Source: Ignavibacteriota bacterium
GTDB lineage: Bacteria; Bacteroidota; Ignavibacteria; UBA10030; UBA6906
NCBI GenBank assembly: GCA_963801355.1
Contig: CAWDEM010000008.1
Location: forward strand, 2,016,001 to 2,080,000
Reading direction: 5' to 3'
Length of the DNA: 64,000 bases
Shown: positions 1 through 8,788 of the stretch, piece by piece
Numbering within the stretch: the first letter of the stretch is position 1
Layout of the letters: each line of letters starts with the position of its first letter
Position numbers and translations under genes: made by a program
The notes under the pieces: generated by a model
The model's input: only the letters and a program-made list of their open reading frames with translations
Databases searched by the model: none
Told to the model about the DNA's origin: nothing

Positions 1-1294
1 TCCCGGGACGTCGAGAAGGGGATCACTGATTTCCAGACATACAAGAAGCTTGTTGCCGGATTCCCGCCCGAGGCCGCTGCGGCTGCAACCGGCATCTCCG
101 CTCAGGCAATCACAGCGACAGCGCACGCGCTCGCTTCCGGTCCATCAGTGGTCATGGCAGGGTGCAATCCTGCGGGCGGTCCGTTCGACCGGGCCACCGA
201 GGTTGCGATTGCGGGACTCAACATACTCATCGGGAGCGTTGGCCGGAAAGGTGGCATCACTCTTTATGCCCGCACCCCTTCGGCACACGCATCAACCGTG
301 CCGGCGGTCGCCCTGGCGGATGTCCCGGACCATTCCATCCGGCTGCTCTTGATCGACGGCGCCGAATCGGGAAATGTGTTCCCCGCGTCATTGCTCAAAC
401 GGAAACTTACATCCGACGGCGGAACAGTAGTGCTCATGTCTCCGTATCTCGCTCCGCGATCAGGCAGTGCCGACTATTTGTTGCCGTCAGCTGCTGCATA
501 TGAATCGACGGAAGAACTTTCCACCCCAACCGGTGCAACCCGATCTTCCTTTGCTCTCTCCCTCCCGCTGTTCAAGCAGTCCGAGAAGACTGTTGATCCC
601 GTGGCATTCCTGGCGAAGCTCGCTGAGGCCGCCGGTCTTCCTCTGCCCGGAGCGACATCCTCGGAAGCCTGCCTCAAGCAGCGTGCCCACGATATCTGGG
701 TTTCCAAACGAGGATCATTGACTACGGCGGCGGATTCTGCAGTGACCCCTGTACAGGGAATGTCGGGAGAAGAAGATTTGTGGAAGGGATTGTCGGAGGG
801 AGAATGCTGGATTGACAGCGAAGATCAGCACCCGTCAGTCATTCCGAAGTTCGATCCTCGGTTCGATGACGCCTGAGCACTTCCAGGCACCGTCTGCATC
901 GGTGAAACCGGCCAAGGGCACATTGAAGCTGATGCCTTTTGGCTGGAGGAACGCGACGATGACGGCCTCTGTGGCGCCGGTGCTCAGCAAGATCTTCCAG
1001 GAATCGCATCTCCGGAGTCTTGGCGGAAGAGTACACCTCAACCCCTCGACCATTGCCGCGAACGCGCTTGCGGACGGGGCCCGCGTGAAAATCAGCACAC
1101 AGTCCGGAACCGTGACAGCCGATGTCGTTGCCGATCCGGCGATCATTCCCGGTGTCATCCACGCCATCGTCGGTCCATCTCCCAACAACACCGCGCACAC
1201 GGATCAACCCGAGGCGGAGGGACTGCTCGGTCTGTGCGTTGTGGGTGCGGACGGTTCATGGAGAATCACTGAAGCAACGATTGCGAGAGCGTAA
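1..1294 (+). pseudogene. qrcB: QrcB/ActB-like molybdopterin oxidoreductase-family subunit, 5'-truncated by the window and split by a frameshift near 845-876
   Basis: Frame 1 is open from base 1 to TGA at 874-876 (AAAATGISAQAI..., ADYLLPSAAAYE). Frame 2 (812-1294) encodes a molybdopterin dinucleotide-binding-like C-terminal domain (VHLNPSTIAANALADGARVKISTQSG...IIPGVI). It lies directly upstream of qrcC/qrcD-like genes. The break may be a sequencing error. Confidence 0.7.
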
Positions 1295-1298
1295 GAGA

Positions 1299-2048
1299 AT
1301 GGAACAGAGCGCAGAATCCAAATCCCGGTATGGCATGGTCATCGACCTTGACCGCTGCACAGGGTGCGGCGCGTGCATGGTCGCATGTGCGGTGGAGAAT
1401 AACGTTGCTCCGGCGGAACAGAAGGCGACGGATCGCACGGGCGACACCTGGTTGCGCGTCTACACGGTAACCAATGGCGAAGGATTCCCGTCGCTTGACA
1501 CGGTATTCATCCCGATGGGCTGCCAGCAATGTGATAATCATACACCGTGCGTCTCCGTCTGCCCGCAAAACGCCGTGGAACTGGACCACGCGACGGGCAT
1601 CGTTGCGCAGATCCCCCAGCGGTGTCTTGGATGCCGCTACTGCATGACGGCATGCCCGTACCATGCGCGATATTTCAACTGGTGGGATCCCCGGTGGCCG
1701 GAAGGCACAGAAACACTGCTCAATCCGGACGTTGCACCCCGCATGCGCGGTGTTGTCGAAAAGTGCAATTTTTGCCATGGGCGCCTTCATACGGCAAGGA
1801 CCAAAGCAGCAGCAGAAGGAAAAAAAGGAATCGAACCCGGCGACTACATCCCCGCCTGCGTTGAAAGCTGTCCCTCACAGGCAATCGTGTTCGGGGACCT
1901 TGCGGATGAGTCGAGCCCCGTTGCGCAGCTGAGCCGGAGCAGTGATGCATTTCAATTTCTTCCCAGACTCGGCACCGCGCCGAAGGTGTTCTATCACTCA
2001 GCGAGGGAATGGGTCCGGAACATGGCCGCACGGGTACCGACGGCGTAA
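1299..2048 (+). CDS. qrcC: 4Fe-4S dicluster subunit (QrcC/NrfC/DsrO family)
   Basis: YGMVIDLDRCTGCGACMVAC, CQQC...PCVSVCP, CLGCRYCMTACPY, EKCNFC...PACVESCP: four Fe-S cluster motifs. ATG at 1299 just after the upstream stop. Confidence 0.88.
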   Translation: MEQSAESKSRYGMVIDLDRCTGCGACMVACAVENNVAPAEQKATDRTGDTWLRVYTVTNGEGFPSLDTVFIPMGCQQCDNHTPCVSVCPQNAVELDHATGIVAQIPQRCLGCRYCMTACPYHARYFNWWDPRWPEGTETLLNPDVAPRMRGVVEKCNFCHGRLHTARTKAAAEGKKGIEPGDYIPACVESCPSQAIVFGDLADESSPVAQLSRSSDAFQFLPRLGTAPKVFYHSAREWVRNMAARVPTA

Positions 2049-2120
2049 ACACTGAACCCCATCCATAAGGATGGGAATGACAACCCCGCCGTTCACGACG
2101 GGATACAGAGGAACAGGATA

Positions 2121-3347
2121 ATGGATCAGCAGTTCATACCCAGAGGATTGCAGCGGACGTCGTTCACACGGTTTCTGACATGGATTCTCCCGTGGATTCT
2201 CCTGCTGGGCATCGGTGTCTACGCAATGTATCTTTGCCTTGCCGACGGCCTGTATCACACCAACATGGATAACAGGTTTGCCTTCGGGCTCTGGATCTAT
2301 CTTGATCTCACCATCATCGCTCTTGGTGCGGGCGCCTTCTTCACCGGTTTTCTCCTGTATATCCTGAGGAGGGACGAGCTCAAGGCAGTCATCAACAGCG
2401 CCGTGGTTCTCGGACTCATCTGCTACAGCGGCGCCGTCCTCGTGTTGATGGTGGATGTCGGACAACCCCTCCGCGCATGGTTCACCTTCTGGCATCCCAA
2501 CACACACTCGATGCTTGCGGAAGTCACGTTCTGCCTCACCTGCTACCTGACGGTCCTCATCATCGAATATCTCCCTGTGGTGTTGAAGAACCGGAAGCTC
2601 AGACAAATCCCGCGGTTCCTCGTGTTCGAGTTCGAACTGCACAAAGTCATGCCGGTCTTTGCGGGTGTCGGGACGTTCCTGTCCTTCTTCCACCAGGGCT
2701 CCCTGGGCGGGCTGTACGGGGTCCTCGTCGGCCGTCCGTTTTCGTTCCGCGAGGTCCTGGGGATATGGCCGTCCACCTTCTACCTCTTCATCATTTCCGC
2801 GGCGGCTGCCGGCCCGAGTTTCGTTCTGGTGACCACGTGGCTTGTACAGAAACTTTCGGGGAAAAAGCTGGTAAAACCCGAAGTCATGAAATTCCTCGGC
2901 AAGGTGTCTGGGTGGATGCTTATCGTCTATGTGCTGCTGAAGGCTATCGACACACTGTATTGGATCAATCATACCGTGCCGGCAGAGGGTGGGCTTGCGT
3001 ACGCGTTCTATACTTCGCAGGGATTCGGCACGTGGATCCTCTTTGCAGAGATCGTTTTTCTGGGTCTCATCCCCGCCCTGTTGTTGCTGAGCAGGCGGAT
3101 GCGGGAAAAGCCTGCCGTGCTGGTGGGCGCGGCGTTTCTTGTCTGCTGTGGTATCGTGATGAACCGTTTCGTGATGACCATCCAGACTCTTGCGCTGCCG
3201 ACATTGCCCTTTGACCTGATGATGTCCTATGTCCCGAGCTGGCAGGAAGTTGCGACATTTCTCGCTGTTGTCGCCTATGGTGTTCTGGTATATTCTCTTT
3301 CGTTTCGGTATACGACTCTCTTTCCTCAGGAAAGAGACATCCGCTAA
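2121..3347 (+). CDS. qrcD: NrfD/PsrC-family integral membrane quinone-interacting subunit, QrcD-like
   Basis: About 10 TM helices. FGLWIYLDLTIIALGAGAFF, DVGQPLRAW...HSMLAEVTFCLTCY and FHQGSLGGLYGVL match my recollection of Desulfovibrio QrcD. Confidence 0.88.
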   Translation: MDQQFIPRGLQRTSFTRFLTWILPWILLLGIGVYAMYLCLADGLYHTNMDNRFAFGLWIYLDLTIIALGAGAFFTGFLLYILRRDELKAVINSAVVLGLICYSGAVLVLMVDVGQPLRAWFTFWHPNTHSMLAEVTFCLTCYLTVLIIEYLPVVLKNRKLRQIPRFLVFEFELHKVMPVFAGVGTFLSFFHQGSLGGLYGVLVGRPFSFREVLGIWPSTFYLFIISAAAAGPSFVLVTTWLVQKLSGKKLVKPEVMKFLGKVSGWMLIVYVLLKAIDTLYWINHTVPAEGGLAYAFYTSQGFGTWILFAEIVFLGLIPALLLLSRRMREKPAVLVGAAFLVCCGIVMNRFVMTIQTLALPTLPFDLMMSYVPSWQEVATFLAVVAYGVLVYSLSFRYTTLFPQERDIR

Positions 3348-3365
3348 TGACAGTGGAGGTGCATT

Positions 3366-4199
3366 GTGTTCCCGTTCATCTATGAGTTTCAGTGGACCCC
3401 GTACCATATGGTATTTCTGGGCCTTTTCTTTTCCGTGGTGGTTGTGATCCTCTCCGCCGTGTCGCTAGCGGGGCTGCGCGCATACAAAACACTCCAGCGC
3501 CGGCGTCATGAGGCCGTTCAGTGGGAGGCGGAATTCAAAGACCTGCCTGTTGTAGCGCGCACATGCCGGCATCAGATCGCGGGCGAAGTCGAGCACAGGA
3601 CGTGCAATAACGAATTCGATTGCCGTACCTGTGAGGCGCATAAAGCATTTCTGGCCAAACACACACCCGGGCTGGCTCCAGCCGGCACACAGGAGTCTGT
3701 CTTTGGCTTCTCCATGCCCCTTGACCGGTACTACCACCGGGGGCACACGTGGGTGACGTATGATGGCGACGGGATCTATACCATCGGGTTGGACGATTTC
3801 GGCAACCGGATGATTGGTGCTCCGGAGTCCGTTGAACTCCCCGGCGTTGGAACTGCGTTGAGTGCGAACGGCAGCGGATGGCTTATCAAAAAGGGACGCG
3901 CGGCACTTCGCATCCTCTCGCCCATCGACGGCATGGTGGTGGAGACCGGGTCCACAAAGGATGGCTGGTACCTCAAAGTGCGCGGTGGGGAACCTGAAGT
4001 GGAAACCCGTCACCTCCTGCGCGGAGAGGAAATCAAGCCCTGGATCCTGAGGGAGTTGGAGCGGCTGCAGGGTGCCGTTTCACCGGCAGGCGTGGGTATG
4101 ACTCTTGCCGACGGTGGCGAGCTCGTTTCTGATATGTCGAAACACGCCCCGCATGTCGACTGGGACGGTGTCTGGGGAGAGATGTTCCTGCAGGCGTAA
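3366..4199 (+). CDS. Membrane-anchored glycine-cleavage-H-like protein with a Cys-rich linker and no canonical lipoyl motif
   Basis: GGAGG RBS then GTG. N-terminal TM helix, C-x12-C-x5-C-x2-C, and an H-protein-like domain (YYHRGHTWV...IGLDDF...ILSPIDG...GW) without the ESVK lipoylation motif. Confidence 0.8.
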   Translation: MFPFIYEFQWTPYHMVFLGLFFSVVVVILSAVSLAGLRAYKTLQRRRHEAVQWEAEFKDLPVVARTCRHQIAGEVEHRTCNNEFDCRTCEAHKAFLAKHTPGLAPAGTQESVFGFSMPLDRYYHRGHTWVTYDGDGIYTIGLDDFGNRMIGAPESVELPGVGTALSANGSGWLIKKGRAALRILSPIDGMVVETGSTKDGWYLKVRGGEPEVETRHLLRGEEIKPWILRELERLQGAVSPAGVGMTLADGGELVSDMSKHAPHVDWDGVWGEMFLQA

Positions 4200-4205
4200 A
4201 GAGGG

Positions 4206-5567
4206 TTATTCCCTCTGCATGTTGTACTTTTTCAACCGGTCATACAGGGTTGAGCGGTCAATGCCAAGAATGGACGCCGCCTCCTTGATGTTCCCGTGCG
4301 TGCGCTCCACCGTGGCGGTGATGATATCACGCTCCGCTTCCTCCAGCGTGATATTCGCCGGCACGTTCCACGCCGCTTTGCCCTGATCCCGCCCCGCAAC
4401 AAGAAACTCCACATCCTCATCGGCAAGCATCGTGGTCTTGCAGGTGACAATCGCCCGCTCAATGGTGTTTTCCAGTTCACGGACGTTGCCCGGCCATTCG
4501 TGATCCATCAGGATGCGTAACGCTCCCTCGGAGATTCCGCTTATGTTCTTCCCGAGTTCGTGTGAGATCCGCTCGACGAAGTTCCGGGCAAGGAGCGGGA
4601 TGTCTTCCCTGCGTTCCCGCAGCGGGGGTATCTGGATGCTGATCACGTTCAACCGATAGAAGAGATCATCGCGGAATTTTCCTTCGCGTACCGCGCGATC
4701 AAGGTCCACGTTTGTCGCGGCAATCACGCGGACATCCACTTCAATCTCTTCAGTCCCGCCGACCCGGTAGAATTTCCGCTCCTGCAATACGCGCAGGAGG
4801 TCCATCTGCAGTTTCGACGAAATGTCACCGATCTCGTCCAGAAAAAGCGTCCCGCCATCCGCCATCTCAAATTTCCCTTTGCGCTGTGAGGCTGCGCCGG
4901 TGAACGAGCCCTTTTCATGGCCGAAGAGTTCGGATTCAAGGAGCGTTTCGGGAAGAGCGGCGCATGAGACGGTGATGAACGGTTTCGCCGCCCGGTCACC
5001 CGAGAAATGGACGGCCCGGGCGATCAACTCCTTGCCCGTGCCGCTCTCCCCCTGGATGAGTACCGTGCTGCGCAATCCGGCGACATCCCTCACCAGATCA
5101 AAAATCTTTCCCATTTTCGGGCTTTTGCTGAGGATGTCATGAAAGCTGTACTGTTTCGTGAGTTTCTTCCGGAGAATGGAATTCTCCCTCTGCAGGTTCT
5201 TGACCCTGATAATCCTGTTGACGAGAAGGGATATTTCCTCGGGGTTGCAGGGTTTGACGATGTATTCCTGTGCCCCTTCCTTCATCGCTGTGATCGCGGT
5301 GTCCACCGTTGCGTAGGCAGTCACAATGATGATGGATGCCTCCGGATGGATCTTCCGGATTTCCATCATTGTCTCGATGCCATCGATGCCACCGGGCATC
5401 TTCAAATCAATGAAATAGATCGCATAGTCGAGGTGCGCGGCTTTGTCGATGGCCTCCCTGCCCGACACTGCGGTATCGACGTTGTAACCGTCTTCCCGGA
5501 GCCATGCCGCAAGCGACTCGCGCATCACTTCTTCGTCGTCCACCACCATGATATGCCAGTGATTCAT
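4206..5567 (-). CDS. Sigma-54-dependent response regulator (NtrC/AtoC family)
   Basis: Receiver domain (VVDDE, DLKMPG), AAA+ domain (GESGTGKE, ESELFGHEKGSFTGA, LFLDEIG, WPGNVREL) and Fis-type HTH (AASILGIDRSTLYDRL). Confidence 0.95.
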   Translation of the reverse strand: MNHWHIMVVDDEEVMRESLAAWLREDGYNVDTAVSGREAIDKAAHLDYAIYFIDLKMPGGIDGIETMMEIRKIHPEASIIIVTAYATVDTAITAMKEGAQEYIVKPCNPEEISLLVNRIIRVKNLQRENSILRKKLTKQYSFHDILSKSPKMGKIFDLVRDVAGLRSTVLIQGESGTGKELIARAVHFSGDRAAKPFITVSCAALPETLLESELFGHEKGSFTGAASQRKGKFEMADGGTLFLDEIGDISSKLQMDLLRVLQERKFYRVGGTEEIEVDVRVIAATNVDLDRAVREGKFRDDLFYRLNVISIQIPPLRERREDIPLLARNFVERISHELGKNISGISEGALRILMDHEWPGNVRELENTIERAIVTCKTTMLADEDVEFLVAGRDQGKAAWNVPANITLEEAERDIITATVERTHGNIKEAASILGIDRSTLYDRLKKYNMQRE

Positions 5568-6103
5568 ACAGTCCTCGTCTTTTCCTCAACAAGCGTGATG
5601 CAATTACTGCACAATTCCGTGCCTTTGGCGTCCACCTGTCGGACATTGTTCGAGAGTGACATCGGACAGCCGGTGTCTGCGCAATGTGTCAGGCCGACCG
5701 TATGCCCGACTTCGTGCACTGCCTCCTTCACGGCCCGTGCGGCGGTGAGGGAGGGATTGGGAGGCAGACCATAGAATTCCTGTTGCAGACGAGCCACTGA
5801 GACGACCGCGGCCGGAGCACCCAGTTGGGCTTGCCCGAGCACGAAGCTGAGCATAGGAATGAACAGGTCCCTGCTGGAAATCGCCAGGAGGCTCACCGCG
5901 TCAGGCGGCACACGGGCCACAAGTTGACGCAGGATGTGCGCGGAACTGAACTGTCTGCGCTGCGGGTCAAAGGCGTAGTCAGGTCCCGGCAACGGGGACA
6001 GGCGCTTCACCTCATGACCGTACACGCGCTGGAGTCCATGTTCTATTGCGGTCAGGATGTCTTCCTCAATCCCGCCCAGTGCAACGATATACATCGATTT
6101 CAC
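5564..6103 (-). CDS. Archaemetzincin (peptidase M54) zinc metalloprotease
   Basis: HEVGHTVGLTHC zinc motif, CPMSLS Met-turn and LCSNC. Overlaps both neighbours by 4 nt. Confidence 0.9.
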   Translation of the reverse strand: MKSMYIVALGGIEEDILTAIEHGLQRVYGHEVKRLSPLPGPDYAFDPQRRQFSSAHILRQLVARVPPDAVSLLAISSRDLFIPMLSFVLGQAQLGAPAAVVSVARLQQEFYGLPPNPSLTAARAVKEAVHEVGHTVGLTHCADTGCPMSLSNNVRQVDAKGTELCSNCITLVEEKTRTV

Positions 6104-7743
6104 AAGACCCGTTCCGGCGCGAAAGGTACTGCAGCCGGTGCAGCCTGGACGGGTTCGACGGGCAGCGTTACCTTGAACACGGTGCCTTCGCCCACGATGC
6201 TGCGCATCTCGATGTCACCCCCGTGTGCCTGAACAATGCCGTAGACCACAGCAAGCCCGAGCCCCACCCCTTTGCCTTCCCCTTTCGTCGTGAAGAAAGG
6301 AGTGTACAGTTTCGCGATATTCTCCGGGGCAATCCCGTCGCCGGTATCGCTGACCTCGAGGACCAGTGAATTATCGACCGGCTCGTGAGAAGTCCGGACC
6401 GTCACGCGTGCGTCGGCTTTGTTCTGGGTCGCTTCGGCACCGTTCATCACCAGGTTGATCAGCACCTGCTGCATCTGGGAGGCATCACACGTAACGAGCG
6501 GAAGTTGCTCGTCCAGCTGAAGATCCATCGCGACGCCCATCAATTTCAACTTGTGCCCTATCAGATTGACGGTGGTCCGGACGACGGCGTTGAAGTCCGT
6601 ATTCGCACGCTGATGCGGTTTCGATCGCCGGGAAAACGCAAGCAGGTCCTGCACGATCCTGCCTACCCTGCTGGTCTCGTTGACTACCTGCGTCAGGTAC
6701 TTTTTGAACTCCTCGATCCTCTGCGGCGGTATACCATCCTCTTTCACCATGCGCTGCATCAGCATGGAAAGGTTCAGCACCCCCGAGAGCGGGTTGTTGA
6801 TTTCGTGTGCAACACTCGCGGAGAGCTGCCCCAGGGAAGCAAGCCGGTCACTGCGCAACAGCTTCTGATGAGCAACCTTCAGCTCTTCGGTGCGTTGATC
6901 CACTTTCGTTTCGAGTCCCTGGGTAAATTCGTTCAACTTGTTGATCGCCTCGTTCAGTCTCACGCGCATGGTGTCAAAAGTCTGTGCGAGTTCTCCGAGT
7001 TCCTCCGAGGAATCGATATCGACCGGCTTGTCGAGGTTCATCTTGCTTACCGCCCGGATTCCTCCTATGAGCTTCTGAATTGGCGCTGTAACATACCTTC
7101 GTGTAAAGAAGATCGTAAAGACCGATATCAGGAGAACCAGTATGGCGGAAACAATAAGCACCCGGTCCTGGACCGTGCTGATCTCCGCATCGACGGTGCG
7201 AAGGTCAAGGGCGACGTCGACAACACCCAGGACATTCAATGCCGCCGGATGGGCGTGACAGTCTGCATTGCTGCAAGCGGGTTCGTTGTACACCGGGGTC
7301 ACGATCTCGAGGGCGCGCGTGCCGTCCGGGGAACGGAAGACGCGCGTACGCGCGGGCATATCCACCCGCACGAGAGGACTCCCTGATGCGTGGCAAATGG
7401 CGCACGCCTCCGATTGCTTGTCCACTCTGGCGGAATCGCCGGGAGCAGTGGAGAACATCACCCGCCCCTCTTTGTTGAAGATGCGGATGCGGTTGATCCC
7501 CTGCTTGGTGGCGATTGTCTGCATGATATCGTACGCCCGCTCCCGTGTGTCGGCAAGCATGGCGTGCCAGGTCGCACTCACAATGCTGCCCGAAAGCTGG
7601 TCGGCACCTGTGATCATTGCATCCAGAAGTTGACGCTCCTGGGTTTTCATATGGTAAATCCCTGACGCCACGCCGACGAGCATGACAATCACTGTCAGGG
7701 GAATTATGAGCTGTAGAGAGAGCTTCCGCGGATAAAGTTTCAT
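6100..7743 (-). CDS. Membrane sensor histidine kinase (HAMP-HisKA-HATPase) with periplasmic c-type heme motifs
   Basis: Two TM helices flank a periplasmic domain with CAICH and CSNADCH. HAMP, AHEINNPL H-box, and DTGDGI/PFFTTK/GVGLGL boxes follow. Confidence 0.93.
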   Translation of the reverse strand: MKLYPRKLSLQLIIPLTVIVMLVGVASGIYHMKTQERQLLDAMITGADQLSGSIVSATWHAMLADTRERAYDIMQTIATKQGINRIRIFNKEGRVMFSTAPGDSARVDKQSEACAICHASGSPLVRVDMPARTRVFRSPDGTRALEIVTPVYNEPACSNADCHAHPAALNVLGVVDVALDLRTVDAEISTVQDRVLIVSAILVLLISVFTIFFTRRYVTAPIQKLIGGIRAVSKMNLDKPVDIDSSEELGELAQTFDTMRVRLNEAINKLNEFTQGLETKVDQRTEELKVAHQKLLRSDRLASLGQLSASVAHEINNPLSGVLNLSMLMQRMVKEDGIPPQRIEEFKKYLTQVVNETSRVGRIVQDLLAFSRRSKPHQRANTDFNAVVRTTVNLIGHKLKLMGVAMDLQLDEQLPLVTCDASQMQQVLINLVMNGAEATQNKADARVTVRTSHEPVDNSLVLEVSDTGDGIAPENIAKLYTPFFTTKGEGKGVGLGLAVVYGIVQAHGGDIEMRSIVGEGTVFKVTLPVEPVQAAPAAVPFAPERVL

Positions 7744-7964: not shown

Positions 7965-8384
7965 TTACTTCTGCTTCTGTTCTTCCAACTTCTGCTTTTG
8001 CTCTTCCAACTTCTCGCCTTTCTTCTCCAACTTCTGCTGCATCATTTCTCCCTTTTTCTCCAACTTCTCACCCTTCTTTTCGATCATTTCACCCTTCTTT
8101 TCCATTTTATGGCCCTTCATCTCCATCTTCTCTCCCTTCTTCTCCATCATCTCACCCTTCTTCGGATGATGTTTCTTTACTTTCTCCGCATGCTTCTGAA
8201 TCTTTTCGCCTTTCTTCTGGAGCATCTCACCCTTGTGTCCCGCCTTCTCCCCCGCCTTTTCCATCTGCTCTCCCTTCTTCTCCATCTGCTCCATCTTCTT
8301 CTCGACCTTTTTCTCCTGGGCGAACAAAGTCATCTGGGCCCCGACGAAGGCCAATGCGAGCAACACTATCCCGAGTTTCTTCAT
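7965..8384 (-). CDS. Secreted low-complexity K/E/G/M heptad-repeat (KKGEKME-like) protein
   Basis: AAAGGAG RBS, signal peptide MKKLGIVLLALAFVGAQMTLFAQ, then about 15 KKGExxE-type heptads. Confidence 0.8.
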   Translation of the reverse strand: MKKLGIVLLALAFVGAQMTLFAQEKKVEKKMEQMEKKGEQMEKAGEKAGHKGEMLQKKGEKIQKHAEKVKKHHPKKGEMMEKKGEKMEMKGHKMEKKGEMIEKKGEKLEKKGEMMQQKLEKKGEKLEEQKQKLEEQKQK

Positions 8385-8410
8385 AGCGACAACTCCTTTA
8401 TGGTGGTCTG

Positions 8411-8788
8411 TCAATTCTCCTTAGCGCCCTCTTCAATCCACTTCGCCAGCAGTTTCAGTTGATCCTGCGGAAGAGCTACGACTGTGGAAGTGTCCGGAGG
8501 CATCCGGTAGTGGGGTTGATCGGTCGCGCACACAATGTAGAGCCAGCTTTTCGCCGGCTCCTGGGCAACGATGATTGGCTTCTTGCCAGGATACGTCCGG
8601 GCGTTCATCACATCCTCGTACGATTGCAGCATGACCTTGCCACGGGTGAGTTCCGCGTTGTGGCATTGTACGCACTGTGTATTGAGAATCGGCTGGATCT
8701 GGTCCCGATAGCTCACGGGCGGCTGGACCGTCTTCTGGCTGCATCCGGCGAGAAAGGAAGCAACGAGCACTGTTGCAAGCAAGCGCAT
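8411..8788 (-). CDS. Monoheme cytochrome c lipoprotein (Planctomycete cytochrome C-like)
   Basis: Lipobox LAGC, VSYRDQIQPILNTQCVQCH, distal Met in RMPP, and a KWIEEGA C-terminus. Confidence 0.85.
   Translation of the reverse strand: MRLLATVLVASFLAGCSQKTVQPPVSYRDQIQPILNTQCVQCHNAELTRGKVMLQSYEDVMNARTYPGKKPIIVAQEPAKSWLYIVCATDQPHYRMPPDTSTVVALPQDQLKLLAKWIEEGAKEN

Follow-up and report, generated by a model that had tools for sequence, protein, structure and literature searches.

The first 7,743 positions of a 64,000-nucleotide stretch from an Ignavibacteriota bacterium (hereafter the window; GenBank assembly GCA_963801355.1, contig CAWDEM010000008.1, positions 2,016,001 to 2,080,000 of the forward strand) hold the end of an operon for a Qrc-type menaquinone reductase, which converges on a second operon in which the gene of an archaemetzincin lies between those of a sensor kinase and a sigma-54-dependent regulator. 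This arrangement raises the question of how a Qrc-like complex is controlled in such a host, and what a protease may contribute to that control. Our answer, to which we assign a rough probability of 0.6, is that the locus forms a self-contained respiratory module, active under anoxia and controlled through sigma-54, in which DGG loops of accessory proteins dock in the archaemetzincin. The features within the window are the following.

1..1294, + strand: 3' part of qrcB, in reading frames to 876 and from 812/866 to 1294; the gene starts about 870 bp before the window
1299..2048, + strand: qrcC, electron-transfer subunit with four iron-sulfur (Fe-S) clusters (NF041782, 350.2 bits, cut-off 400; best family by far)
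2121..3347, + strand: qrcD, NrfD-family quinone-reducing membrane subunit (NF041784, 580.7 bits, cut-off 570)
3366..4199, + strand: GcvH-like protein 2, with one transmembrane (TM) helix, a cytoplasmic Cys/His cluster, an H-protein fold and a C-terminal helical extension (PF01597; predicted local distance difference test score, pLDDT, 86.7)
4101..4118, + strand: TLADGG motif of GcvH-like protein 2 (amino acids, aa, 246-251), a coil of lowest model confidence
4206..5567, - strand: sigma-54-dependent response regulator with receiver, AAA+ and Fis-type helix-turn-helix (HTH) domains, from family scans
5564..6103, - strand: archaemetzincin (peptidase M54) with intact zinc-binding and catalytic residues (NF033823, 154.6 bits, cut-off 145; PF07998 over cut-off)
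6100..7743, - strand: sensor kinase, consisting of TM helix, periplasmic sCache_heme-like domain, TM helix, HAMP, HisKA and HATPase (PF21563; Foldseek match to GSU0935, 3b42, E 2e-6)
7390..7404, - strand: haem-c motif 1 of the kinase, canonical CxxCH (aa 114-118), in 50 of 51 sensor domains
7255..7275, - strand: haem-c motif 2 of the kinase, CX4CH (aa 157-163), in 51 of 51 sensor domains, at the position of the GSU0935 haem site

The gene layout given in an earlier note on this DNA is present in full: seven genes, the haem motifs, converging stops of GcvH-like protein 2 (+) and the regulator (-) 6 bp apart, and 4-nt overlaps of kinase with archaemetzincin and of archaemetzincin with regulator. 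The gene-neighbourhood comparison that it had proposed was carried out by scanning genome contigs with QrcD and reading the best (closest) 80 of the 311 confirmed QrcD relatives, a sample made up of Ignavibacteria/Bacteroidota and Acidobacteriota loci (28 Acidobacteriota by title, two titled only 'bacterium') and having the Desulfobacterota loci outside it; the nearest named loci are titled as Bacteroidota or Ignavibacteriae metagenome-assembled genomes (MAGs). In all 79 loci whose flank is long enough, GcvH-like protein 2 follows qrcD (the script found 78, and inspection added the last one), and a further GcvH-like protein, GcvH-like protein 1, precedes the operon in 62 of 63. Among the 44 long loci, defined by at least 9 kb upstream and at least 8 kb downstream, regulator and kinase are found in 37, arranged convergently as in the query in 27 and divergently with a shared promoter region in 10; regulator, kinase and protease are all found in 32. 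Overlaps of 4 or 1 nt join kinase and protease in 29/42 readable loci, and protease and regulator in 32/47. Chance does not explain the linkage, which is seen in two phyla and with either gene order. Two loci (L105 and L109) carry the Qrc-type module beside a second cassette of HybAB type, each with its own kinase, regulator and protease.

The operon begins about 2.9 kb before the window on the same contig (locus L001, in which L001:18001 is window position 1), with the following features.

L001:15096-15134: two enhancer palindromes, the two best scores genome-wide
L001:15222-15237: sigma-54 (-24/-12-like) site, 70 bp before the small-protein gene
L001:15292-15540, start of the operon: 82-aa membrane protein with TMADGG motif
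L001:15570-16544, upstream of qrcA: GcvH-like protein 1, with a Cys-rich N-terminus
L001:16526-17128: pentahaem qrcA, with five haem motifs (208.9 bits, cut-off 180)

A conserved sigma-54 site, which the earlier note had suggested looking for upstream of qrcA, is thus found before the small-protein gene, with the palindromes a further 104 and 126 bp upstream of it. In the 300 bp before the small gene, the sigma-54 pattern occurs in 35 of 59 loci, the enhancer palindrome in 41 and both at the correct spacing in 27, against maxima of 3, 4 and 1 over 200 shuffles and no sigma-54 match on the reverse strand. The patterns had been derived from 11 regions partly within these 59 loci, and matrices were hence retrained on non-acidobacterial loci only; with these, 14 of 21 acidobacterial loci scored higher than every one of the 50 shuffles, and in 10 of the 14 both halves are strong. 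Palindromes in tandem, spaced by 20-23 bp, were seen in 42/59 loci (shuffles: at most 1), and the palindrome precedes the qrc operon in 49/59 loci, a count that includes the training loci, versus 0/35 convergent kinase genes. In the query genome, which encodes rpoN, the qrc promoter is the top match (39.4 versus 30.5); the second-best regulon candidate, at C4:241506, was set aside, there being no clear gene start after it.

Genome and locus together hold what defines a sigma-54 two-component regulon, namely rpoN, activator domains, a -24/-12 site and an upstream enhancer. The recognition helix of the regulator is conserved across orthologues and differs from that of paralogous cassettes. With NtrC/AtoC/ZraR-type systems the locus shares the receiver-AAA+-HTH activator and a -24/-12 promoter preceded, at about 100-130 bp, by a tandem enhancer; in contrast to those systems, its regulator does not reach the cut-off of any of the 25 best-scoring named families. 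To our knowledge, a protease and H-fold accessories are not part of them. It is very likely that the two-component system controls the Qrc-like operon transcriptionally.

Other searches around the promoters gave less. A plain consensus scan for sigma-54 sites was uninformative without conservation (24 matches versus 21.6 expected), a terminator and sigma-70 scan returned counts at chance level, and control of the kinase operon by sigma-54 or FNR found no support (enhancer 0/35, FNR pattern 0/35, sigma-54 5/35). Five Bryobacterales-type loci (L075, L104, L108, L112, L124), in which the standard sites are absent, have in common a half-conserved variant palindrome, located some 130-150 bp ahead of the small gene. 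A sigma-54 site with a similar palindrome also stands at a cytoplasmic sulfhydrogenase-type NiFe hydrogenase operon (G000:C8:432195-436930, L129); it is strong in the query genome, in five close relatives and in two genomes without the Qrc module, and in the others of the 30 loci it is weaker or missing. This operon is a possible second target, or a possible target of a paralogue.

Regarding the input to the kinase, the model of the sensor domain (pLDDT 86) matches Cache domains, including that of the haem-c sensor GSU0935, and PF21563 is matched by 56/56 sensor domains at E<=0.05, with the query under the curated cut-off. A 2026 preprint (PMC12889525) names the sCache_heme family, a HAMP-linked member of which has nitric oxide (NO)-sensor properties and binds NO. 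With the sensors described there (GSU0935/GSU0582 and the NO-binding Pseudomonas protein) the query shares the periplasmic Cache domain between two TM helices, the HAMP domain that follows and the equivalent place of the haem motif, while differing from them in having CX4CH rather than CxxCH at this site, plus a second motif, CxxCH (PMC12889525). An extracytoplasmic Cache fold with a haem-c motif is thus present; at the family position, however, all 51 sequences carry CX4CH, and the canonical CxxCH comes earlier. The placement of CX4CH at the GSU0935 haem position comes from a weak sequence alignment to 3b42 (E 0.042). On these sequence features, the sensor is filed as sCache_heme-like, and the CX4CH together with the extra CxxCH makes a two-haem sensor likely; the kinase of the acidobacterial MAG CO124 lacks the canonical CxxCH. 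Haem motifs and Cache fold match support the earlier proposal of a periplasmic sensor of haem-c type. The periplasmic redox state, which had been proposed as its signal, would be only one option given the NO-sensor properties of the HAMP-linked family member, and NO appears at least as likely. Immediately upstream of the kinase on the same strand (window 7965-8788, -) come genes for a small monohaem cytochrome c, which resembles a lipoprotein and passes the cut-off for PSCyt1, and for a secreted repeat protein rich in Lys and Glu.

The presumptive target operon has the gene order of QrcABCD, that is multihaem cytochrome, molybdopterin-family subunit, Fe-S subunit and NrfD subunit. QrcA and QrcD lie above their NCBIfam cut-offs (208.9 of 180 and 580.7 of 570); QrcC and QrcB lie below theirs, QrcB with 254-281 of 440 in three intact orthologues and the Qrc model still its best-scoring family, and by these sequence scores the complex is classed as Qrc-like rather than as a strict equivalogue. 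PMC6303296 names 15 residues of the quinone site and proton path, of which the query QrcD has 13 at a fixed offset, picked by eye from the numbering of that paper, and these 13 are kept in 77-79 of 79 orthologues; a sequence search found no solved QrcD structure. The likeness to D. vulgaris QrcABCD (PMC6303296, PMC8076601) therefore extends over gene order, multihaem QrcA, molybdopterin-family QrcB, four-cluster QrcC and these 13 residues. In contrast to D. vulgaris, the query has a pentahaem QrcA, QrcB and QrcC under cut-offs, three extra operon genes, a sigma-54 promoter, a linked two-component system and a host without a dsrA match. As the genome is 100% complete and gave no match for dsrA, the sulfate-reducer context in which Qrc is known, and which the earlier note had named, does not appear to apply here. 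Desulfobacteraceae Qrc has been described as constitutive (PMC11887813), and the supplements of the D. vulgaris sigma-54 regulome paper gave no hit for DVU0692, DVU0694, DVU0695 or 'qrc'.

The query qrcB is split over two frames by one extra base near window 842-845, as judged by alignment to two close relatives. A genuine split gene was rejected, since qrcB is in a single frame in all 66 other loci holding both halves; contigs of runs X1 and X2 are each one base shorter at this site (one contig each, depths 2.5 and 5.2). The frameshift is probably an assembly error or a strain-specific lesion. Within residues 41-125 of QrcB orthologues, four to six N-terminal cysteines are kept in 55/57, which would fit an Fe-S cluster; QrcB is entered without a cofactor in Table 1 of PMC8076601. 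The known QrcABCD has a QrcB without Mo/W cofactor and takes its electrons from type I cytochrome c3. As to electron partners in the query, 13 open reading frames (ORFs) of the genome have at least two CxxCH motifs, without an obvious small tetrahaem c3 among them (one tetrahaem ORF encodes 178 aa). NrfA was discarded as a partner, there being no nrfA match in the genome, and both of the inspected NiFe hydrogenase operons seem to encode cytoplasmic enzymes. A polysulfide/thiosulfate-reductase-like operon with sulfur-transport and rhodanese-like genes (G000:C8:1224796-1230371; labels from reading translations) is a possible menaquinol sink, and at C8:473 kb there is an operon resembling that of alternative complex III.

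Activity under anoxia is indicated by published transcriptomes of MAG CO124, in which coding sequences (CDS) 42 to 44 are kinase, archaemetzincin and regulator, CDS 48 is a GcvH-like protein (GcvH-like 2), CDS 49-52 are qrcD-A, CDS 53 is a GcvH-like protein (GcvH-like 1) and CDS 54 is the small motif protein (PMC10564751). According to the supplementary table of that study, all module genes stand at 0 reads per kilobase per million mapped reads (RPKM) in 4/4 oxic samples. The anoxic increase is significant for the kinase (adjusted P, padj, 0.004), GcvH-like protein 1 (0.003) and qrcD (0.018); qrcB and qrcA rise without significance, and reads are present for qrcC and the small gene in three, and for the regulator in two, of the four anoxic samples (PMC10564751).

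What distinguishes the operon are its three accessory proteins. GcvH-like protein 2 finds H-proteins as its best Foldseek matches (E 9e-8) and scores 43 of 116 bits against TIGR00527, under the family cut-off; its Cys/His pattern recurs in 76/77 orthologues. Neither GcvH-like protein keeps the lipoyl lysine (Lys at this column in 4/58 and 0/49), and a separate canonical GcvH is encoded in the query genome. Relative to the glycine-cleavage H protein and GcvH-L, the fold and the H-x-W strand are shared, whereas the module's proteins are without a conserved lipoyl lysine and have an extra TM helix or Cys-rich domain and a C-terminal helical extension with a DGG loop. A membrane-bound, lipoyl-less GcvH-like protein, as first proposed from the window, is accordingly what the one TM helix, the fold and the lysine column indicate. 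The 82-aa small protein has no Pfam or NCBIfam family over cut-off. It is represented by 559 cluster representatives at E<=0.001, the best 150 of which include no fusion and are all of at most 160 aa; in the ESM Atlas only unnamed Acidobacteriota clusters under 0.9 were returned for it, and no usable match for the Cys/His segment.

All three accessory proteins have a DGG motif in common. Together with the small protein and GcvH-like protein 1, none of them part of the earlier note, this motif is the best guide to the role of the protease. It is found in 77/77 sequences of GcvH-like protein 2 (pLDDT 58 for residues 241-250, the motif segment), in 59/62 of GcvH-like protein 1 and in 59/59 of the small protein, where TMADGG is invariant in a set collected by tblastn, a search itself biased toward motif carriers. 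In two further loci the small ORF is shortened and lacks the motif, GcvH-like protein 1 lacks the loop, and no protease gene adjoins. Judging by the basic residues that follow the TM helices, the motif region is probably cytoplasmic. The regulator has an EMADGG stretch of its own before Walker B (window 4848-4868), which resembles the accessory motif and is common to such activators. Mimicry of this loop by the accessory motif was not supported: ADGG is common among activators and variable in Qrc-type regulators, the accessory motif is invariant, and the regulator loop did not co-vary with the accessories in three cassettes in which EGG accessories go with ADGG regulators.

The archaemetzincin is single-copy in the query genome. 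The full M54 motif (HEXXHXXGXXH, Met-turn, Cys4 zinc site) is present in 48/48 orthologues and the catalytic Glu in 41/41; a dedicated protease, as had been surmised, is supported. Its closest known counterparts are the archaemetzincins AmzA and the inactive CarG (PMC3427221); it has the full HEXXHXXGXXHCX4CXMX17CXXC-type motif of the family, archaemetzincin structures being its best PDB sequence matches, and differs from them in that its gene overlaps two-component genes and that it has a candidate target motif. Natural archaemetzincin substrates were stated to be unknown in 2012 (PMC3427221).

A natural control was available in 48 stretches around further GcvH-like matches in relatives. In all 11 cassettes with a receiver-fused H fold (one in the query genome; three end near a contig edge), DGG or EGG and an own protease gene are both absent, and all 23 HybAB-type cassettes with a visible protease carry DGG (20) or EGG (3); the remaining stretches are cut by contig ends, have the protease elsewhere or, in one case, hold a canonical GcvH. 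Among 61 genomes, labelled by hand, motif-bearing GcvH-like protein and protease occur together in 43 and are jointly absent from 14, with 4 genomes discordant. This pattern suggests that receiver-fused and DGG-bearing forms are one effector fold with two alternative inputs. The paralogous cassette at G000:C4:1615387-1624230 (L029:9378-18230) has an Fe-S subunit, a HybB/HmcC-like NrfD protein, a 13-haem cytochrome, a two-haem-motif kinase with an extra Cys-rich insert, two receiver-GcvH-like fusions and a divergent sigma-54 regulator, and neither protease nor DGG. At residue 150 of the protease, Leu in 41/41 Qrc-type sequences stands against Ser/Ala in 15/20 of the other cassette type, parallel to Ala versus Gln in the motif; this swap was rejected as evidence of co-variation, being one evolutionary split with no trend within the second type.

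Co-folding of the protease with residues 36-82 of the small protein (no H fold) scored 0.76, against 0.00 for the best of three controls; the mark used is reached by 116/157 solved complexes and 2/215 mismatched pairs. The runs agree in at least 89% of contacts, with a partner pLDDT of at least 58. Motif residues 60-65 are predicted to pair in reverse order with residues 88-94 of the protease edge strand, and the interface touches the zinc ligands His130, His134 and His140. We take this edge-strand, reverse-order pose to be that of a metzincin substrate. The models thus predict binding of the DGG motif by the protease, in keeping with the gene-presence pattern, and suggest that a cut would fall behind Met63 or behind the residue that follows it.

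The following model may be drawn from these results. First, and highly probably, the periplasmic haem-c Cache domain would sense a gas or redox cue, upon which the kinase would phosphorylate the regulator, which would bind the two palindromes and open the sigma-54 promoter of small protein, gcvH-like 1, qrcABCD and gcvH-like 2. Secondly, homology makes it probable that QrcABCD moves electrons between the periplasmic cytochrome pool and menaquinone, with protons taken from the cytoplasm. Thirdly, the models make it reasonably likely that the three accessory proteins show a cytoplasmic DGG loop that binds in the active-site cleft of the archaemetzincin. Fourthly, at odds slightly under even, the protease would clip the loop, most likely after Met/Leu, and thereby switch the two H-fold proteins or cause their turnover. 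With little beyond an anchor and the motif, the small membrane protein may tether or compete for the protease and, because it is the first product of the operon, would give feedback. The H-fold proteins would be regulated adaptors, not lipoate carriers, with Qrc, kinase or regulator considered as their downstream target. Only tentatively, and with more doubt than confidence, do we extend this to a new signalling layer, in which H-protein-fold effectors would be switched by site-specific archaemetzincin proteolysis of the DGG loop, with a small decoy for feedback, and by receiver phosphorylation in sister cassettes.

Several points weigh against this reading. The genomes compared are kin, so that the counts are not independent, and no statistic is given. 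Four of the 14 acidobacterial promoter passes have a weak sigma-54 half, and 7 of the 21 held-out acidobacterial loci are without promoter signal, three of them with the regulator adjoining; these seven are six Bryobacterales-type loci and one other, and rpoN was found in 5/5 such genomes tested. The enhancer is of the TGT-N11-ACA class, a common activator-site class (PMC4641369), and the genome holds many activators, hence its assignment to the linked regulator rests on linkage. Co-folding used our own alignments and a zinc ligand, unlike its calibration, and such a model may put an extended peptide in a protease cleft by analogy with solved metzincin complexes. Archaeal archaemetzincins were inactive on standard substrates (PMC3427221). 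In CO124 the protease and GcvH-like protein 2 have zero reads in all eight samples, sequencing depth is low and many genes shift with anoxia (PMC10564751). Two genomes, G037 and G023 (both 100% complete), keep kinase, regulator and protease, and no DGG-bearing GcvH-like protein was found in them, which makes the regulator the tightest partner of the protease. Binding, cleavage and promoter activity are all predicted. In G037 the trio sits among multihaem cytochrome genes; at L202:172-12797 kinase, regulator and protease lie within a cluster of multihaem cytochrome, Rieske and cytochrome b genes without a GcvH-like gene, and a similar multihaem cluster is found in G000 at C4:668-683 kb.

The alternative that survives best, unlikely as we hold it to be, keeps the same transcriptional control and makes the archaemetzincin a CarG-like, non-cleaving adaptor that grips the DGG loops and bridges the accessories to regulator or kinase. 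The predicted cleft pose speaks for binding and not for cleavage, and the protease gene lies beside a sigma-54 regulator wherever neighbours are readable, bar one contig-limited case; moreover, CarG, which is archaemetzincin-like, serves a transcription regulator, and archaeal members are without activity (PMC3427221). However, the catalytic Glu that CarG has lost is kept in all 41 Qrc-type and all 20 HybAB-type sequences, and the query scores 97.6 versus a cut-off of 250 for the non-proteolytic family.

Improbable, in our estimate, is a second alternative, in which DGG is an assembly signal that holds the cytoplasmic accessories on Qrc, and the protease acts on another target, for example the regulator or the kinase. 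It would account for the trio of G037 and G023, and for GcvH-like protein 2 retaining DGG in loci without an adjacent protease gene; four of five genomes without an adjacent protease, however, hold a paralogous one. The strong cleft prediction with null controls, and the joint absence of motif and protease from receiver-fused cassettes that still have an NrfD subunit, likewise argue against this alternative. Finally, a purely historical linkage of the kinase-protease-regulator operon to qrc, with another activator serving the promoter, is very improbable: the enhancer class is generic, 7/44 long loci have no regulator nearby and a similar site precedes the hydrogenase operon also in genomes without the Qrc module, yet the linkage survives the convergent/divergent switch, three genomes without an adjacent trio in the first stretch have close trio orthologues elsewhere or across a contig break, and paralogous cassettes with a different recognition helix score lower by the same matrices (6/8 under 15, best 26.5).

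Taken together, these results favour the sigma-54-controlled module with DGG loops docking in the archaemetzincin; of the earlier interpretation, synteny and sigma-54 promoter, the absence of either of which was to have refuted it, stand, as do haem sensor, protease and lipoyl-less GcvH-like protein, and the sulfate-reducer context probably falls with the missing dsrA match. The occurrence of the module is patchy: besides the centre genome, QrcD was over cut-off in 1 of 200 sampled genomes of the phylum of an acidobacterial centre, a tally that includes the unpublished genome G090. Parts of the Qrc literature state that QrcD is limited to Deltaproteobacteria; the assignment of qrcABCD to the acidobacterial MAG CO124 extends QrcD to Acidobacteriota (Dyksma and Pester 2023, PMC10564751), and the passages found in that paper name qrcABCD only, not the wider module. 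A full-text search, covering mostly the starts of abstracts and having subscription journals and bioRxiv supplements outside its reach, found no paper describing the combination.

For the archaemetzincin family, the DGG motif offers a short, conserved candidate target with a predicted pose that is testable by peptide assay; if the reading is true, an archaemetzincin would have in the DGG loop a defined natural substrate, something unreported for any member in the literature examined. For a Qrc-like complex from outside the sulfate-reducing Desulfobacterota, the module also supplies a regulator together with the sequences of a promoter and an enhancer. It further offers a non-lipoyl role for the H-protein fold, and a gas-sensor domain of a recently described kind in what is likely a two-haem form, in lineages that include at least one member switching between oxic and anoxic life.

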